This document shows positions 4,651-47,642 of a stretch of DNA of 64,000 nt, piece by piece. The stretch spans positions 1,641 to 65,640 of the forward strand of contig CBDDBE010000001.1 in assembly GCA_965225085.1 (NCBI GenBank), given 5' to 3'. A model generated the notes under the pieces. That model saw nothing but the letters and a program-made list of their open reading frames with translations. It made no database searches and was not told where the DNA came from. Position numbers and translations under genes: made by a program. The first letter of the stretch is position 1. Every line of letters starts with the position of its first letter. This stretch comes from an uncultured Candidatus Saccharibacteria bacterium (GTDB taxonomy: Bacteria; Patescibacteriota; Saccharimonadia; Saccharimonadales; EFPC-124).

Positions 4651-5700
4651 TTAATAACGACTGATCTTATTAAAGGTATACCCCGCCCGCAGCAGCATAG
4701 CGCCCATCACGGTTACGAGCGCGAAGAGTATGTAGGCGATCACACCTTCCATATACGGGCCGGCAAGCACTCTCAGTACATATAAATATATCGTTACAAC
4801 CACGATTGACCAAATCGCCTGATATAAAGTGTTGATTGGCGTTTTATAAAGATCAGGAACTAATTTGGCAGCCTTGGGGAAAGCCACTAACGACCAGATG
4901 GGCGTAACCATAATCCAGGCCCACATCATACCAGTGATGCGAATGACCATATCGACTCTTTGCTGTAACAAATCAGGAAAAAACCACGTAGCAGCCATAA
5001 GCGGAACCACCATCACAACAAAAGGTACGCTGGACGACCATATACCCTTAACCCCCACCAAACGTGCATATTTCATATCGCCCAAGTGAAACAAAGACGC
5101 TGCAACAAGGACGGGCAACGAGAACAACACGTTGACGAACTCCTGGTTGCGTAAGTCAAAAATCTCTAGAATGGGCTGCTCCAAAAGGCTAAGTCCCAGC
5201 AAGGTCACCCCACTGGCAATCAGTACAAACGCCTGACGAAGCGACGATCGGAACGAACCAAGCGCCGTCAGAAAAAACCACGCCCCACCCATGTGCAGCA
5301 ATGCGAATAACGTTGCGCCACCTATCAGAACCCGCTGTTCGATAGTCGTAACCGGCAGTCCAACCGCCAAGGCAGCGGCCGTTATAATAGCTATGCTCGT
5401 TACGACGTACAGCCGTATCTTGTCGCGCCCGGCACGAGTAGGCCTGAAGTGCTGTTCTAGCTGCAGGTCCAGGGACTCCGCAGTAAAGTAGCGCAGTGTC
5501 TCCTTGGTAGTCAGATACGCCTTAAGGCCCTTCTCTACTTCAGCCAGTATCACCGCGTCGTTGGCACTAAGTGGCATGCTTGGATTGACGCGCGCGGTCA
5601 CTCCGCGGAACGTGTCCAAAAGCGTATCAACCTCAGCCGGACGGGAGGTCAACGACGCTAAATACACAATACGATCAATCGCTGCTGAAGCAGGTTGCAT
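4651..5700 (-). CDS. hypothetical polytopic membrane protein
   Basis: 349 aa. A soluble N-terminal ~95 aa is followed by about 8 hydrophobic helices. Confidence 0.7.
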   Translation of the reverse strand: MQPASAAIDRIVYLASLTSRPAEVDTLLDTFRGVTARVNPSMPLSANDAVILAEVEKGLKAYLTTKETLRYFTAESLDLQLEQHFRPTRAGRDKIRLYVVTSIAIITAAALAVGLPVTTIEQRVLIGGATLFALLHMGGAWFFLTALGSFRSSLRQAFVLIASGVTLLGLSLLEQPILEIFDLRNQEFVNVLFSLPVLVAASLFHLGDMKYARLVGVKGIWSSSVPFVVMVVPLMAATWFFPDLLQQRVDMVIRITGMMWAWIMVTPIWSLVAFPKAAKLVPDLYKTPINTLYQAIWSIVVVTIYLYVLRVLAGPYMEGVIAYILFALVTVMGAMLLRAGYTFNKISRY

Positions 5701-5803: not shown

Positions 5804-6271
5804 CTACGGCCTGACCTTGAAAACAGCGTCGATCACGACCGCAGCGCCCAAGGGCAACGAGGCTACACCGATCTCGGTGCGTATCGACGGATCGACATCG
5901 ACACCAAGCAGCTGGCTTGCGAAATGACTTGCGCCGTCGGCCACGCTGGAGATGTCCGTGAAATCCGGAGTGCAGTTGACAAACACCCTCAGACGAAGCG
6001 CCTCGTAAATCTCGTGAAGGCCGGCGACCGAAGCCGCAGCGTAAAAGCACTGCACCATGCACAGCTCGGCAGCCTTTACCGCGTCCTCGAGCGAGACTTC
6101 AACGCCGACCTTGCCGACGACTACAGAGCCATCCAGCCTGACGGGGACCTGGCCGGACGTCTCGACGCGCTGCCCGGTCCGCTTGGCGCTGCTGGTGGGG
6201 TACCTCGGGTTCCGGTGAGGCTGAGGCAGCCACTGGTAGCCCAGCTCTTCCAAATGTTGGATGCGATTCAT
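5804..6271 (-). CDS. RidA/YjgF family protein (long-form, Atu1372-like)
   Basis: MNRIQHLEELGY...SGQVPV...AAELCMVQC...LRLRVFVNC...DGASHFASQLLG...IGVASLPLGAAVVIDAVF matches the YjgF/RidA fold pattern. Start moved to the internal ATG at 6271. Confidence 0.8.
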   Translation of the reverse strand: MNRIQHLEELGYQWLPQPHRNPRYPTSSAKRTGQRVETSGQVPVRLDGSVVVGKVGVEVSLEDAVKAAELCMVQCFYAAASVAGLHEIYEALRLRVFVNCTPDFTDISSVADGASHFASQLLGVDVDPSIRTEIGVASLPLGAAVVIDAVFKVRP

Positions 6272-6402: not shown

Positions 6403-7347
6403 TCAATTCTGAAGCGGTGAGACCTGGCGCCAACCGTCAGTCGCATTCTTGTCCTGTTCGAGACGAGTCCAATCCTTGCCCATTGTTTCCTCTATTTTGA
6501 TCGCATCAGCTGGGTTGTATGCATGCTGGACAGCACCCTCCAGTGTTGCCCCTATTGGCAAACCGTTCTCGGATAGTTTTGCCAACTCGCTGGGCGGCAG
6601 GGTCTCAGTAGCGTATGGCTTGGCCAGTGCAGTTGTGTGCACAACCAACGTCAGCCACGAGCCAACTCGTAGCCGCTCCACACCAATCTTCTGGCCCTTT
6701 TCGTAAAAGGTCGCATTCTTGTCCGTAGCAATATGCACATTAGCGTAACTCTGACCGTTCAATCCAAGATCAACGGTTATCCCTTTGCTGTCAACACCCT
6801 TCAGCTGAGCATAAGGCGAAAAATACTGCTCCTGATACGGCTGAAAATCTTGTGTACCTTTCTTAGGGGATGTCCCTGTGAGATCAGGAAACAACTGCGT
6901 AACAAGATCAGCCTCGCAGTAACCAATCAGACCCTGGGTCAGTTGTTCTATACTCGTGTGCGATGTGGCGCTCATTTCATAGTACTCATGTTGCGGACCA
7001 TTCTGTTCTTGCCCTTGACAGCTGCTGTAGTTAATCCAGAACCGTTTGTCCCCATTTGCCAGCGTCGTGATACCTTCGGCCTGGTCCAATCGAATATCAG
7101 GTCGTAGCCATGCAGCAGTCGCGAAAGCTGCGCCGCCGGCTAGCAGCCCAACGACACCGGCCGCAAGGCCTAGGCGTTTTACTAGTGAATAATGTGACAT
7201 CTGTAGTCTCCTGTACATCCCGGCCTTGCCATGCCTCCAGGCCTGTTTGCGCCTGCCTGTTTGCAAACCCATCATTGTTCGATCTGTAAAATCAGTCGTC
7301 AATGATCGACGCGGCTCAATACCTCCGCCCTGCCTATCTTTGCTCAT
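6403..7347 (-). CDS. putative anti-sigma factor / membrane-anchored extracytoplasmic protein
   Basis: Start overlaps the sigma gene stop by 4 nt. It has a cytoplasmic N-terminus, one TM (LGLAAGVVGLLAGGAAFATAAW) and a ~235-aa external domain of no recognised family. Confidence 0.55.
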   Translation of the reverse strand: MSKDRQGGGIEPRRSLTTDFTDRTMMGLQTGRRKQAWRHGKAGMYRRLQMSHYSLVKRLGLAAGVVGLLAGGAAFATAAWLRPDIRLDQAEGITTLANGDKRFWINYSSCQGQEQNGPQHEYYEMSATSHTSIEQLTQGLIGYCEADLVTQLFPDLTGTSPKKGTQDFQPYQEQYFSPYAQLKGVDSKGITVDLGLNGQSYANVHIATDKNATFYEKGQKIGVERLRVGSWLTLVVHTTALAKPYATETLPPSELAKLSENGLPIGATLEGAVQHAYNPADAIKIEETMGKDWTRLEQDKNATDGWRQVSPLQN

Positions 7348-41550: not shown

Positions 41551-42183
41551 ATGCGATACGTCATTGGGTTCAGCTTTGCTGCGCTGGCTATTTGGGTGGT
41601 TCAAACAACCGGCATTCTGACGGCTTTGCTTGTATTTGTCGCAGTCGGCTCAGTACCGGGCACCGCCATCACCGTATCACCCCATGTAATGCTAATCTCG
41701 CTTGCCATAATGACGGTAGCAGTTGGGTTCTGGATCAAACGCATACAGTTCTCTCACCGCATGCAAAACATTGAGCAAAAGCAAACTCGCCAAGCAAATG
41801 AGAGCTCCAAGCCTGCAATATTTGCCGCGGTCTATGCCCGAGCATTCGCTACCGCACGCCAGGTGGCCAGCATAAGCAAAGGTCGTGCCGCTGCAGGGCT
41901 CCGACGCTTATCCGACACAAGCAACAAGGCGTTAGCTACTATCACTGCCGCGCTCCGAGCAGCAGCCAAAAGAATTTTCGACTGGGCGCGCCCTCGTCTA
42001 AATCAGTTGGCGCGGCAGGTCATCTACTCAGCAAAAGGCACAATACTCTCAGCCCACAAATGGAGCTCGCTCAGCAAAAAAGCCTGGGCGTCAGTCGCCC
42101 CTTTGCTGAGCCGCTGTAGTTCGCTGCTGAAACGTGGCAGGTCATTTGCGATGCGCGATGCACGCAAGTCTTCCCAAGCTTGA
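41551..42183 (+). CDS. hypothetical membrane protein (3' 160 nt overlaps the convergent sbcB)
   Basis: SD gaggtgg. Two N-terminal TMs, then a basic Ala/Ser/Arg-rich tail. Confidence 0.5.
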   Translation: MRYVIGFSFAALAIWVVQTTGILTALLVFVAVGSVPGTAITVSPHVMLISLAIMTVAVGFWIKRIQFSHRMQNIEQKQTRQANESSKPAIFAAVYARAFATARQVASISKGRAAAGLRRLSDTSNKALATITAALRAAAKRIFDWARPRLNQLARQVIYSAKGTILSAHKWSSLSKKAWASVAPLLSRCSSLLKRGRSFAMRDARKSSQA

Positions 42184-43445
42184 CGCTCATCTTGACTCAA
42201 ACTCTGGGGATAATTGCGCGCCTTGTACCTGAGCAATAACGCTGCAAGTCGTTCGTCGCCAAATTCAGGGCGGAAATCCTTCAGCCCACCCGAATCGGCG
42301 GCTCGTACGGCGCTCATCTTGATCTTATCGCCGTCGCCTACAAACCCGTTGTACAGCGCGGCATCGACGTCCTTGGCTTTGGGAAATGCCGCACCACGCG
42401 CAAATACATCGCGAAACCTATCCATCAAGGCAGAATTACGCACCAGCGCCGAAAGGTGCTTCTCGACTGTAGCAATAGTTAGCCCTATGCGCGCCTGCGC
42501 CGCCTCGTCCAATACGCCTATCGGCGCGACAGCCGGGCACTTGTTGGGGCTCAACTCCTTGACCGGTAGCGGCATAAAACCATCAATCTGTCGGTCTTCC
42601 CACTTGGCAAAACGAATCTTTTTCAAATCATCGAGCGATTTGTCGGTCCAATTCGACGGGTCTGCCGACAAATCATACACCAGCACCGACCCGGGCTTGC
42701 TGCCAGGCCCAATTGGCAAGGCTACTGTCGTGTGCAGTCGATTCTTGGGGTATCGGCCCGAGCTATAGACAAACGGCTTAGGATCATCGAGGTTAACAAG
42801 TTTAGCAACCTCTTTTTTATCCCGCATCTTGCACAGGTAGTCGAACAGTTGTGGCTGCTTGATCTTGATCAGCTTCGCCACGCCAATTAGGGCCACCACG
42901 TCGCTGAGCGCGTCGTGCGCTTGCTCGTGGTCAAGGCCATTAACGGCAGATAATTTCTCTAACCGGTTCATCGGTTGCCCGTTCTCATCAAATGGCCACT
43001 CAATGCCGTCCGGCCGAAGCGCACGCGTCATCCGTACCACATCCAGCATGTCCCAACGCGAGCGATCGTCTCGCCAGCTCCACTCATACGGATCGTGGAA
43101 GTTCCGGTACAGCGTATACCGCATAAATTCATCGTCGAACCGAACGCTATTGAAGCCCAGGATAGTCGTACCCGGCGTAAAGACTTGCTCGAATAGCAGT
43201 CGGCTAAAATCTGCCTCACTGTAGCCTTCGTCCCGAGTCTTCTGAGGCGTAATGCCGGTCAGCACTATCGCGGCTGGATCAGGCAGAACCTCGTCAGTCA
43301 GGGCAACCAGCACGTTGATAGGATCACCTATCGGATTCATATCCATATCAGTACGCTGACCGGCAAATTGCATAATGCGCTGCGATTTGGGATCAAACCC
43401 GGACGTTTCGAGGTCGTAAAAAAAGAATGTAGGTTGGCTATTCAC
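42024..43445 (-). CDS. sbcB: exodeoxyribonuclease I
   Basis: FFFYDLETSGFDPKSQRIMQFAGQR (DEDDh Exo I motif), HDALSDV; 473 aa; GTG start. Confidence 0.9.
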   Translation of the reverse strand: MNSQPTFFFYDLETSGFDPKSQRIMQFAGQRTDMDMNPIGDPINVLVALTDEVLPDPAAIVLTGITPQKTRDEGYSEADFSRLLFEQVFTPGTTILGFNSVRFDDEFMRYTLYRNFHDPYEWSWRDDRSRWDMLDVVRMTRALRPDGIEWPFDENGQPMNRLEKLSAVNGLDHEQAHDALSDVVALIGVAKLIKIKQPQLFDYLCKMRDKKEVAKLVNLDDPKPFVYSSGRYPKNRLHTTVALPIGPGSKPGSVLVYDLSADPSNWTDKSLDDLKKIRFAKWEDRQIDGFMPLPVKELSPNKCPAVAPIGVLDEAAQARIGLTIATVEKHLSALVRNSALMDRFRDVFARGAAFPKAKDVDAALYNGFVGDGDKIKMSAVRAADSGGLKDFRPEFGDERLAALLLRYKARNYPQSLSQDERQAWEDLRASRIANDLPRFSSELQRLSKGATDAQAFLLSELHLWAESIVPFAE

Positions 43446-43509
43446 TCCACCAGTGTAGCGTACTCTGGGCGGAAATTAAAAAATGCCCCATACAGGACAA
43501 CATGATTCT

Positions 43510-43820
43510 TGAAAAGTTGAATGCCCGGCAGCTCACCTCAGATGAGGAGGCTGCCGGGCTTAAGTGGTGAAGGTCTACGCCCATGCGTCTCGTCAGACGT
43601 TATCGGGTCGAAGTCTCGTCACCGGCATTAGGAACACGCATGCAGTACTGCAACAGGAAGGGGCATTTTGCCCCAGAACCAACCGATGCGGCATGAAGCC
43701 GCCGATCCCTGAAGCCATCATGAACGGTTTATAGCCGCCCTTAGGCTTATTAAAGCGAACCCTTGCTAGCAACCTACGTTGCTACCGTGCAGCACGCAGA
43801 CCCGAAGGTGCTAACGTGAC
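43510..43820 (-). ncRNA. candidate structured ncRNA A (~310 nt), class unassigned
   Basis: Minus-strand promoter TTGACT(43855-43850)-17-TATTAT(43832-43827). No ORF of 60 aa or more. Many local hairpins (GGGGCAAAAUGCCCC, GCAGUACUGC, UAGCAAC/GUUGCUA, GCGGC/GCCGC, CGUCU/AGACG). An 8-bp pairing, GGUCUGCG/CGUAGACC, links the 5' and 3' ends. A terminator hairpin lies at 43523-43559 followed by CTTTTC. Confidence 0.4.
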
Positions 43821-43909
43821 TTTTGTATAATAATGCATTTATGAAATAAAGTCAAGTATTTTTGTATATTTTCGCACATATTCCTCCCAAATCAGGGGTC
43901 AGCTTACTT

Positions 43910-44136
43910 CACAAAAGTAAAAGGGCCCGGCAAATCTCATAAAAATGAGAGATGCCGGGCCGTAACGGGCAGGTGTCGCAGGCGATCAGCCTCGTCAGGC
44001 GTATGCCCATTTGCGAACACGCAACCCGTCTCCCCCAGGGAGGCCCGTCCCACCAGCGGGCGTGTGGTTTGCTTGTAGCGACAGCCATGAGGCCGTCTGA
44101 ATCGACAAGGACCCGCCCGAGCACGATCGCGCTCGG
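43910..44136 (-). ncRNA. candidate structured ncRNA B (~230 nt), rod-like fold (6S-like?), class unassigned
   Basis: Minus-strand TTGACT(44189-44184)-17-TAGTAT(44166-44161) and an extended -10 TGGTATAAT (44151-44143). Long-range pairings CGGGCGGG/CCUGCCCG, UGUCG/CGACA, ACACGC/GCGUGU and CUCCC/GGGAG form an irregular rod. Terminator at 43924-43961 followed by CTTTTACTTTTG. Confidence 0.4.
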
Positions 44137-44223
44137 TGCGTTATTATACCACTAGAATAGATACTATAACGCAAATTTGATAAAGTCAAGACTTTCTAAT
44201 ACATTTCGAAGAATATACAACTA

Positions 44224-45579
<1,356 letters not shown>

Positions 45580-46232: not shown

Positions 46233-47255
46233 CTAATGAATGTAGTTATAGCTACCCGCCGACGAAGCTGAAACATCACGGGTCGAGATGATGTTCCATC
46301 CTACCCAGTTCATATCCGTAACCGACAAACTGCCGTCGCCATTGACCCGCTCTACAATGCCTACGTGGCCATAGCCACCCCAGCCCCCGCCGTTCTGGAT
46401 GACGGCGCCAACCTCGGGCGTATGGTCTACGCGGAAGCCAGCAGCACGCGCCATGACAGCCCAACTCACGGCATTGCCCCAGTTACCGCCGATCGGACGA
46501 CCAATCTCGGCGCGACGGTTGTAGGCATAGTACGTACAGTAGCCGTAAGCGTATCCGTTACCGGAAACAAGCGGAATAGACAGCGACGTTGCAACCGCAT
46601 TTGCAGAGCTAGCCGCGTAGGTACGTGGTGCAACGTATCCAGGACGTTCGCTCTCGGGCAAGATGCCATCAGGAATAATGATCTGCTGACCAGTCTTTAA
46701 GCCTGTTAGTTCTGCGTCGTTAAAGGTGATAATACGATCTTTATCGGCCTGATATTTGCTGGCAAGCGAATCGGCGTTATCGCCATTCTTGACCGTGTAG
46801 AGCACACCTGTAACGCTTGGGATCTGCAAGGTTGCGCCAGGGGTAAGCGAATCCGAAGTAAGCTTGTTGGCCCATCGAATGGTATCTTCGGAGATGCCAA
46901 GCGCAGCGGCAACTGACTTGACATTGTCGCCAGATTTAACGGTATAGGTAGACACGCCTTTACGGCCGGTGGTCTGGCTGACAATTTGAGGTTTGCTGAT
47001 GAAGGTATTGTCGGCCTGCGCCAGGTCAGTCTTGCTGTTGAGTGAAATTGCAAGGCTTGCAACGTTGGCGCTTACCAGCATGTCGGTGTTTTGCGCCGCA
47101 GACACTGCGACATCGGCCGCTGCGATCTGGTCAACACTGGGAGAAGCCTGCTCCAAAATGGACGAACTACTGGATTGGCTAGCCTCGACAGGCGCTCGGT
47201 AGCCAATCGCGACAATCGCGACAATAAACGCCACAACAACAATCTGCGACGTCAC
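46233..47255 (-). CDS. LysM (x2) plus CHAP domain peptidoglycan hydrolase
   Basis: Two LysM repeats (YTVKSGDNVKSVAAALGISEDTIRWANKL; YTVKNGDNADSLASKYQADKDRIITFND). C-terminal CHAP (YGYCTYYAYNRRA...GHVGIVERV). The GTG start at 47255 is the first canonical start, but the frame stays open to 47426. Confidence 0.85.
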   Translation of the reverse strand: MTSQIVVVAFIVAIVAIGYRAPVEASQSSSSSILEQASPSVDQIAAADVAVSAAQNTDMLVSANVASLAISLNSKTDLAQADNTFISKPQIVSQTTGRKGVSTYTVKSGDNVKSVAAALGISEDTIRWANKLTSDSLTPGATLQIPSVTGVLYTVKNGDNADSLASKYQADKDRIITFNDAELTGLKTGQQIIIPDGILPESERPGYVAPRTYAASSANAVATSLSIPLVSGNGYAYGYCTYYAYNRRAEIGRPIGGNWGNAVSWAVMARAAGFRVDHTPEVGAVIQNGGGWGGYGHVGIVERVNGDGSLSVTDMNWVGWNIISTRDVSASSAGSYNYIH

Positions 47256-47405: not shown

Positions 47406-47642
47406 ATGTGTCTCCGTTGCTGCACGTCACCATGCAGCTATTTAGCTTCCGTTCGTGTCTTGCTTCCAGATGTAATGGAACAGAGATGCGTCGACCATAA
47501 GTGCTATTACTTGAAAAATCTTTTGTAGCATCTCGTACGACACGACTTGGGAAGAACACTAGTGTACGGTGAAATCGCTTATGGCTATTCACCCACCCAA
47601 GCGTACAAAAACCATTGTACGTCCTGTTGACAAGGGTGTCAA
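47406..47642 (-). promoter_or_regulatory. strong promoter (TTGACA-17-TACAAT) plus ~200-nt structured 5' leader of the LysM/CHAP gene
   Basis: -35 at 47642-47637 and -10 at 47619-47614. Leader helices: GUACG-CUUGGG/CCCAAG...CGUAC, GGUGAA/UUCACC, GAGAUGC/GCAUCUC, UUCCA/UGGAA, GCUGCA/UGCAGC. Partial resemblance to ydaO-type blocks (GGGUGAAUAG, CGAACGGAAGCUAA). Confidence 0.4.

Follow-up and report, generated by a model that had tools for sequence, protein, structure and literature searches.

Several classes of bacterial RNA, among them OLE, GOLLD, ROOL, the raiA motif and HEARO, are intergenic, stand-alone, long, hairpin-dense and restricted to certain lineages, and they were discovered in sequence data before their function was known. 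Regulatory RNAs are little known in the Patescibacteria (Candidate Phyla Radiation, CPR), whose tiny genomes depend on a host. We have analysed a stretch of 64,000 nucleotides (nt) from an uncultured Candidatus Saccharibacteria bacterium (GCA_965225085.1, contig CBDDBE010000001.1, positions 1,641 to 65,640), hereafter the window, with a GC content of about 55%. Between obg and sbcB it contains a gap of 778 bp (43446-44223), already described in the original prediction as the longest stretch without a credible open reading frame (ORF). Indeed, no other internal stretch without an ORF of at least 90 amino acids (aa) is as long, the runner-up reaching 472 bp. The original prediction placed in this gap a single structured RNA, A, upstream of sbcB; A does look like a unit, but a tandem paralog of about 250 nt, B (44189-43905), had been missed.

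A and B share the general features of the OLE type of RNA cited above. These classes, however, possess conserved cores with extensive covariation, whereas A and B have no detectable homologs. Another likeness is offered by the protein sponges CsrB/CsrC and RsmX/Y/Z, which are encoded by duplicate small RNA (sRNA) genes, sometimes in tandem, of 100-350 nt, each with its own promoter, a Rho-independent terminator and multiple hairpins; A and B are likewise diverged copies with multiple hairpins and with a predicted promoter and terminator of their own. The hallmark of sponge RNAs is a large number of GGA motifs in hairpin loops; in contrast, A holds about one GGA and B about two (counted by eye), while some 5 per 320 nt would be expected at random. 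Type I toxin-antitoxin systems (hok/sok, aapA/isoA, ibs/sib) are also made of tandem, copy-variable units, with structured mRNAs in which 5' and 3' ends pair and with short ORFs preceded by a Shine-Dalgarno sequence. At our locus we found no conserved hydrophobic toxin ORF, and the sole ORF near A with a Shine-Dalgarno sequence encodes a charged 22-mer, MCENIQKYLTLFHKCIIIQKSR; promoter-like sites on the antisense (plus) strand (43841-43870 and 44177-44205) match 9/12 consensus positions only and lie in AT-rich DNA. A hammerhead ribozyme was considered and rejected: A and B both contain a CUGANGA-like motif, CUGACGA (CUGACGAG), but the nucleotides after stem II are AGAC in A and UGCGAC in B instead of GAAA, and the hammerhead models of Rfam gave no match in 43350-44350 at E <= 10.

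We favour the reading in which A and B are two structured non-coding RNA genes, transcribed independently of each other and forming an orphan, lineage-specific pair; whether they are real RNA genes we regard as evenly balanced. A would be a stand-alone RNA of about 340 nt, with its promoter at 43855-43827 and its terminator at 43499-43484, both on the minus strand, and B would occupy the remainder, so that the two fill the obg-sbcB gap. Taken alone, A would be an unvalidated orphan sRNA candidate, of a kind that is common in bacterial genomes, and its interest comes from its context. The larger result is that the same site, between two housekeeping genes, very probably houses in related Saccharimonadales a new class of structured RNA, absent from Rfam 15. 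The predicted features of the gap, all on the minus strand, are the following:

44161..44189, minus: candidate promoter of unit B, TTGACT-17-TAGTAT (9/12 in the promoter scan), 34 nt past the obg stop codon
43962..44154, minus: unit B body with a GC content of about 61%, opening with a very stable 5' hairpin CGC-A-CCGAGCGC/GUGCUCGG-GCG
43911..43961, minus: putative hairpin terminator of unit B, GGCCCGGCA...UGCCGGGCC then CUUUUACUUUUG, an inverted repeat with 17-nt arms, 88% complementary
43811..43888, minus: AT-rich spacer, 29% GC, with a Shine-Dalgarno-like GGGAGG (43888-43883) and a 22-codon ORF
43827..43855, minus: candidate promoter of unit A, TTGACT-17-TATTAT (10/12 in the promoter scan), with a -35 context duplicated from B
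43560..43822, minus: body of unit A, with a bulged 5'-proximal hairpin at 43821-43791 (free energy, dG, -11.2) and several internal hairpins
43523..43559, minus: GC-rich hairpin of unit A, GCCCGGCAGC...GCUGCCGGGC, an inverted repeat with a perfect 10-bp stem (dG -30.0 kcal/mol)
43476..43499, minus: putative intrinsic terminator at the end of the island, UGUCCUGUAUGGGGCA + UUUUUUAA, detected in the terminator scan (hairpin 43499-43484)

The near-consensus promoter of A had been noticed before and the scan recovered it; over 1.7 kb, four promoter-like sites were detected against 1.5 +/- 1.4 in shuffled sequences. It gains weight because an AT-rich island (29% GC) precedes a body of 55-57% GC and because its 16-nt -35 context is duplicated in B. 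More generally, the promoter and spacer regions have 26-29% GC and the bodies of A and B 55-62%. The body of A contains GCGUGUUC and two CUGACGAG/GUGACGAG motifs that are common to B. The RNA 43822-43505 is predicted to fold with -126.4 kcal/mol, as compared with -106.8 +/- 4.5 for 100 dinucleotide shuffles (z -4.4), none of which folds as well. The hairpin density proposed for A is thus confirmed as an excess of folding, but not its length of about 310 nt, which depended on the end assigned to the molecule. The GC-rich stem at 43523-43559, taken earlier for the terminator with a T-rich tail, does exist; it is, however, followed by AUUCAACUUUUC, with just three U within the first 8 nt, and the terminator scan made no call there. 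Unit A more likely ends near 43476, with a length of about 340 nt, since it is the hairpin 43499-43484 that the scan calls. In the same way, the two 8-nt segments proposed to close the molecule, GGUCUGCG (43802-43795) and CGUAGACC (43579-43572), are present and complementary, but the fold model disfavours their pairing: its probability in the thermodynamic ensemble is 0.0005 and it can be imposed only at a cost of 5.1 kcal/mol. In the model, UCGGGUC (43805-43799) pairs by preference with GACCCGA (43609-43603), with p about 0.72. Both the terminator and the closing helix first assigned to A are therefore probably wrong in detail.

Unit B has the same organisation. Its promoter aligns with those that lie just after obg in related genomes, and an extended -10-like TGGTATAAT is found directly downstream, at 44151-44143. 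The 5' hairpin of B has a dG of -20.3 (z -4.3), and the predicted fold of 43905-44155 reaches -122.1 kcal/mol against -91.1 +/- 4.8 for shuffles (z -6.5). The terminator hairpin (43961-43924, dG -28.4) is paralogous to the GC-rich hairpin of A. In the spacer which follows, the GGGAGG is separated by three nucleotides from the AUG of the 22-codon ORF (AUG 43879 to UAG 43811); its putative product is the 22-mer mentioned above and the frame runs across the A promoter.

We compared the two units by local alignment and obtained a score of 50, against 22.5 +/- 3.5 for 300 shuffles, of which none scored as high; the alignment spans nearly the whole length. The 16-nt -35 block is 88% identical, both units keep near-consensus -35 and -10 hexamers at 17-nt spacing as well as the hairpin stems GCCCGGCA, and the remainder of the alignment has an identity that we estimate by eye at 55-60%. 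From the alignment score, the common -35 block, the GCGUGUUC/CUGACGAG motifs and the GCCCGGCA stems it follows that the whole unit was duplicated: judged by these similarities, A and B arose from one unit by tandem duplication and then diverged, the duplicated part comprising both promoter and hairpin. That promoters and stems have been kept amid such heavy divergence suggests selection for transcription and not neutral decay. A two-sequence RNAalifold of A and B was not used, as its alignment differs from the significant pairwise one and two sequences are too few.

The sequences of related organisms were then considered. The loci sampled came from 80 species-representative genomes chosen by Obg similarity, 80 metagenome loci and the contigs of seven of the closest Obg relatives. 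Synteny of obg and sbcB was observed in 101 loci, the gap being shorter than 100 nt in 32 of them and 300-1500 nt long in 56. In many of the long gaps there is no credible ORF; what these gaps have in common is an architecture and not a sequence. Right past the obg stop codon comes a sigma-70-type promoter; it is followed by a bulged 5' hairpin (P0), by a short CAUUNA-like stretch and by the 5' strand of a closing helix. P0 has a two-nucleotide bulge, usually UU, on its 5' side, then G-C and A-U pairs, and many different stem sequences surround this constant bulge. The 5' strand of the closing helix has a consensus close to AAGYURGRUA and is directly followed by a long hairpin; the 3' strand reads UAYCYARCUU, and the helix comprises 12-16 bp. 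Between the two strands lies an interior of 250-1000 nt, variable and in many members enriched in GC. The 3' part contains a strong GC hairpin, the closing-helix 3' strand, about 20 nt and, shortly before the sbcB start, an intrinsic terminator. The units of these elements, which we call island RNAs, measure 265-980 nt across related loci. Examples of gaps that bear them are (coordinates of each locus):

L096, 1577-2246
L114, 2692-3306
L020, 5306-5954
L022, 5300-5908
L166, 1891-2661
L164, 4455-5306
L083, 4297-5436

The closing helix covaries strongly. In 23 elements, in which the two strands are 262-981 nt apart, 88% of the cells are paired against 65% after shuffling; this percentage is partly circular, since complementarity had served to find the 3' strands. 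Compensatory changes were seen at each of the 16 pairs, in 95 cells in total, and the covariation score of 0.665 was reached by none of 500 shuffles (0.227 for shuffled alignments); controls in which the strands were slid are only 28-39% paired. Exact Watson-Crick pairs of the closing motifs were found only in the gap, in one constant orientation and adjoining the terminator; they concern 19 elements (17 distinct loci and two duplicate contigs).

The number of units varies. Two tandem units are present in L014 (5288-6614) and L015 (5300-6500) and three in L016 (5297-6728), each with its own promoter and terminator, and these arrays mirror the B-A pair of the window. At the other extreme, L289 (4975-5085) has a minimal unit of about 80 nt that consists only of a promoter, the UU-bulged hairpin AUCAG-UU-GAGC..GCUC-CUGAU and a terminator; this minimal unit suggests that the 5' hairpin is the conserved core. 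The closest relatives of our organism, whose Obg is 74-78% identical, carry a single element of 603-981 nt with promoter and terminator at the same positions. These elements have 62-65% GC in loci of 53-57% GC (L162 4890-5499, L164 4565-5230, L166 1995-2597, L083 4384-5364). The L083 element contains repeated GGCGGCUUCGGCCGC hairpins, and a distant-mode blastn search with this GC-rich element gave no match in the phage or plasmid collections described below.

Modules with a Shine-Dalgarno sequence and a short ORF are common inside the elements of relatives. One such module is a micro-ORF of 7-10 codons with a Shine-Dalgarno sequence in front, ending in Ser-Gly-Phe-Thr-stop (SGFT), which we observed at:

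L014, 5639 and 5730
L015, 6048
L017, 5708
L049, 6618
L121, 4551

Its codons differ between copies only by synonymous changes (UCA/UCU/AGC, GGC/GGU/GGG, UUU/UUC, ACU/ACC), each of the three stop codons occurs, and in a search of 166 loci on both strands the pattern was confined to the gap and to the gene strand. Because of this synonymous variation and of this restriction to the gap and the gene strand, we consider the SGFT micro-ORF as a coding signature, and some island RNAs are probably translated there. In L109 (4390-4600) a unit contains an internal tandem duplication of about 110 nt, each copy reading AGGAGAACA-AUG-AAU-UCC-GUU-UAA, a 4-codon ORF with a perfect Shine-Dalgarno sequence.

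No match to Rfam 15 was obtained for island RNAs among the loci scanned, and no description of them was found in the literature searched. Only the 5' hairpin and the closing helix are conserved in them and the interior is hypervariable, which distinguishes them from the OLE and GOLLD type of RNA. A strongly covarying closing helix, hypervariable interiors, variation in copy number and, in one branch, a conserved frame of 7-10 codons are the traits of this family, which offers a concrete entry point to the RNA biology of Saccharibacteria. Some Saccharibacteria are now culturable and genetically manipulable.

Do A and B belong to this family? They lie at the expected place, in the obg-sbcB gap, and in the orientation of the two genes, and each has the expected anatomy, namely a sigma-70-type promoter per unit and an intrinsic terminator, in a tandem layout. 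The likeness extends to the position of a promoter just after obg, a terminal GC hairpin and a terminator before sbcB. The GC-rich hairpin at 43523-43559 occupies the site of the terminal GC hairpin of the relatives, the terminator 43499-43476 aligns with their closing terminator (flanks of L166, L162, L164 and L083), and the -35 context TTGACTTTAT is also found in L098, L102, L106 and L127. Both A and B start with a stable hairpin bearing a 5'-side bulge (dG -11.2 and -20.3), and it is possible that these are very diverged equivalents of P0. The SGFT micro-ORF of some island units, in contrast, is absent from A and B.

The tests based on structure and on similarity gave another picture. When the window gap was aligned by MAFFT with the elements of the closest relatives, nothing but the flanks, with promoter and terminator, could be matched. 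A profile of L162, L164 and L166 matched nothing in the window with nhmmer, and a profile of A and B matched no locus. A descriptor of the bulged hairpin returned a single chance-level match in the gap, at the obg stop codon, and for the 3' tail of A, AUUCAACUUUUC, which resembles the closing 3' strand of relatives, no convincing 5' partner was found. Kinship by k-mers was judged insufficient: only UGACGAG recurs between A/B and the family interiors, in 6 of 24 sequences and at inconsistent positions. For the covariance model of the bulged hairpin, R1, six seeds of the same length were used; MAFFT gave no structural alignment of the short 5' hairpins. The best match of R1 in the window, UUCAGCUGAGCA..UGCUCCUGAU at 6800-6836 on the plus strand (17.7 bits, rough E 0.014), is antisense within a 314-aa ORF (6403-7347) and is probably due to chance.

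Since both structural tests and the similarity searches failed, we treat A and B as positional analogs of the island RNAs and possible descendants, not as demonstrated members. They may have descended from an ancestral island RNA or have replaced it. We can only tentatively suggest, and doubt somewhat more than we believe, that A and B are extreme, fast-evolved members of an undescribed class of modular RNA cassettes, restricted to Saccharimonadales, between obg and sbcB. Such a cassette would begin with a strong promoter and the bulged hairpin and end with a terminator; in between, a covarying closing stem would enclose a payload that is hypervariable and often enriched in GC. Cassettes would form arrays of one to three, some with a translated micro-ORF that keeps its SGFT end through synonymous changes. 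A fixed frame with a fast-changing payload would suggest diversifying selection; that this selection is tied to the epibiotic life on actinobacterial hosts is pure speculation.

Known RNA families were searched with cmscan. With the 4227 families of Rfam 15 at gathering scores, the whole window gave only two tRNAs and nothing in the gap; around it (43350-44350), with permissive filters and E <= 10, three chance-level matches appeared (mir-753, a CRISPR repeat and SorX), all on the B hairpin. There was no covariance-model match for RNase P (RF00010/RF00011), signal recognition particle (SRP) RNA (RF00169 and related) or 6S RNA (RF00013), either in the window at gathering scores or in the gap at E <= 10. 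ARAGORN detected in the whole window two tRNA-Leu and no transfer-messenger RNA (tmRNA), for which Rfam (RF00023 and the permuted forms) gave no match either. The models of OLE, GOLLD, ROOL, raiA, HEARO and Ms1 had no match at E <= 10 in 43350-44350 on both strands. These results agree with the failure to see a convincing RNase P, tmRNA or SRP motif by inspection of A. Of the two identities then offered, that of an undescribed RNA agrees with the lack of a match to any known family, with less support than had been implied, no homologs having been found; that of a divergent housekeeping RNA did not hold against the Rfam and ARAGORN results, the tandem paralog and the differences between relatives at this locus.

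Several observations weigh against A and B being RNA genes. With A, B, the whole gap and the A+B profile as queries, nhmmer found no homolog in 166 loci and 5 further close relatives, in the whole window or in 120 viral loci; the only matches were the window itself and a duplicate contig (L001). Covariation is consequently not assessable for A. Run without filters on 43446-44223, the R1 model matched nothing at E <= 10, and the canonical closing helix is absent from the gap according to scans for long-range helices and for motif pairs, the best helix having 8 bp and being of another type. The similarity of the A 3' end to the elements of relatives is not significant, as 60 to 186 of 300 shuffles score as high. 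A lone 10/12 promoter match in 1.7 kb is not significant by itself, and sequence without function could show such a promoter or, equally, a fold z of about -4. It is also possible that the strong B hairpin sits inside one longer transcript.

On the other side, 778 bp free of genes are exceptional in a compact window, and the site holds RNA units in relatives, with promoter and final terminator at equivalent positions. The function of A and B is best argued from the fact that both diverged copies keep promoter hexamers, stable hairpins and excess folding in a compact genome. If so, they would be transcribed and stable and would act as trans-acting regulators or protein-binding RNAs, their 5' ends possibly protected by the stable hairpin that lies close to each predicted start. 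Were A and B expressed, they would represent lineage-specific RNA genes kept under a strong genome-shrinking pressure.

The viral loci mentioned above had been collected with a motif scan, GCGTGTTC-N8-20-TGACGAG, in viral contigs, which returned at least 120 loci; nhmmer led us to reject them as chance matches. A possible origin from a mobile element or a host was probed by distant-mode blastn of the gap, without a match in 50,697 phage or 72,556 plasmid records.

Among the other explanations, it seems unlikely, though worth serious attention, that the region is a decaying, non-functional relic of an ancestral island RNA, duplicated once, in which the motifs are relics or due to chance. A and B have lost the bulged 5' hairpin and the closing helix of the family, no relative sampled has a homolog, and island interiors evolve very fast and seem dispensable, 32 of 101 genomes being without an element. 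However, patescibacterial genomes are compact, and yet this is the longest gene-free stretch of 64 kb. Moreover, the two diverged paralogs both keep their hexamers, hairpins of -28 to -30 kcal/mol and the fold z-scores given above (-4.4 and -6.5), features that neutral decay should erode first.

We also find it improbable that B and A form one RNA of about 670 nt, extending from the promoter at 44189-44161 to the terminator at 43499-43484, with the B terminator internal and the A promoter incidental, in a translated 22-codon ORF preceded by a strong Shine-Dalgarno sequence. In the closest relatives a single element of 603-981 nt does lie between promoter and terminator at the same positions, its length is comparable to the total in the window, and the GGGAGG-N3-AUG 22-codon ORF that spans the A promoter recalls the modules common in relatives' elements. 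Yet the A promoter, with 10/12 positions, 17-nt spacing and a 16-nt -35 block in common with B, points to duplication of a whole unit, and L014, L015 and L016 have tandem units each with their own promoter and terminator. In addition, CUUUUACUUUUG, which comes after the B hairpin (dG -28.4), is a plausible U-tract, and no long-range helix between the B 5' and A 3' ends was found, the best having 6 bp by hand, while the scan gave only the 8-bp GGCTGTCG/CGGCAGCC. We therefore retain two transcription units, A and B, as the preferred reading.

It is very improbable that A is a small protein gene with an incidental structure, for instance the 59-aa TTG-start ORF (43593-43772) or a 41-aa AUG sub-ORF. 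Short ORFs do exist on the minus strand, and units of relatives contain ORFs of about 57 aa (L014 unit 2, by eye) and about 43 aa (L015 unit 1). The longest same-strand ORFs, 59 aa in A and 71 aa in B, nevertheless show no similarity to each other (mutual BLASTP E 3.4) despite paralogous DNA; neither has a Pfam match nor, in the small-ORF scan, a Shine-Dalgarno sequence in front, and the gene calls on the identical Logan contig include none within the gap. That A is a highly divergent RNase P RNA, tmRNA, SRP RNA or 6S RNA is hardly credible: its size, its own promoter and terminator and its high structure would fit and none of these genes is annotated in the 64-kb window, but the searches at E <= 10 and ARAGORN were negative, the tandem paralog and the lack of anything similar at the locus in the closest relatives sampled, whose sequences there are quite different, make A unlike a single-copy universal RNA, and the true genes may lie elsewhere in the genome, outside the window.

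The gap is bordered by the following features:

44224-45561, minus: obg (Pfam GTP1_OBG, MMR_HSR1, DUF1967)
42024-43445, minus: sbcB/exonuclease I (Pfam RNase_T, Exonuc_X-T_C), GTG start at 43445
43445..43460, minus: conserved CGCUACACU block, kept in the window, L083, L164 and L166

The Obg homologs with a source name are labelled Candidatus Saccharimonadales or Saccharibacteria and the closest is just 78% identical; by this protein comparison the window therefore comes from a rather isolated lineage within this patescibacterial order, the Saccharimonadales (TM7). In front of sbcB, a TACACT (43457-43452) ends about 7 nt ahead of the GTG start, as it does in the closest relatives, and could be the promoter of a leaderless mRNA. 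Many relatives have an extended -10-like TGTTATGCT that ends 7 nt ahead of the sbcB ATG (e.g. L102 around 4710-4725 and L020 around 5940-5955), and the sbcB mRNA thus seems to be leaderless in the window as well as in relatives. We did not retain the possibility that A serves sbcB as a long attenuating leader, because B, with the same architecture, cannot be a leader and because sbcB appears to have its own promoter-like TACACT. An 11-nt complementarity between A (43780-43770) and the sbcB start (43436-43426) was rejected as an sRNA-target pairing, being at chance level (about 0.16 expected, an estimate).

Downstream, a plus-strand ORF of 210 aa (41551-42183) without Pfam match is convergent with sbcB and overlaps its 3' end by 160 nt (42024-42183); this overlap is also called on contig L001 and in relatives. 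Finally, at 47412-47555 on the minus strand, upstream of a LysM-CHAP gene (46233-47255), we observed a sub-threshold match to the lysM-TM7 RNA (RF03005), with 54 bits against a gathering score of 61.5 (E 3.8e-9); the motif is above threshold at the equivalent site in 13 relatives.

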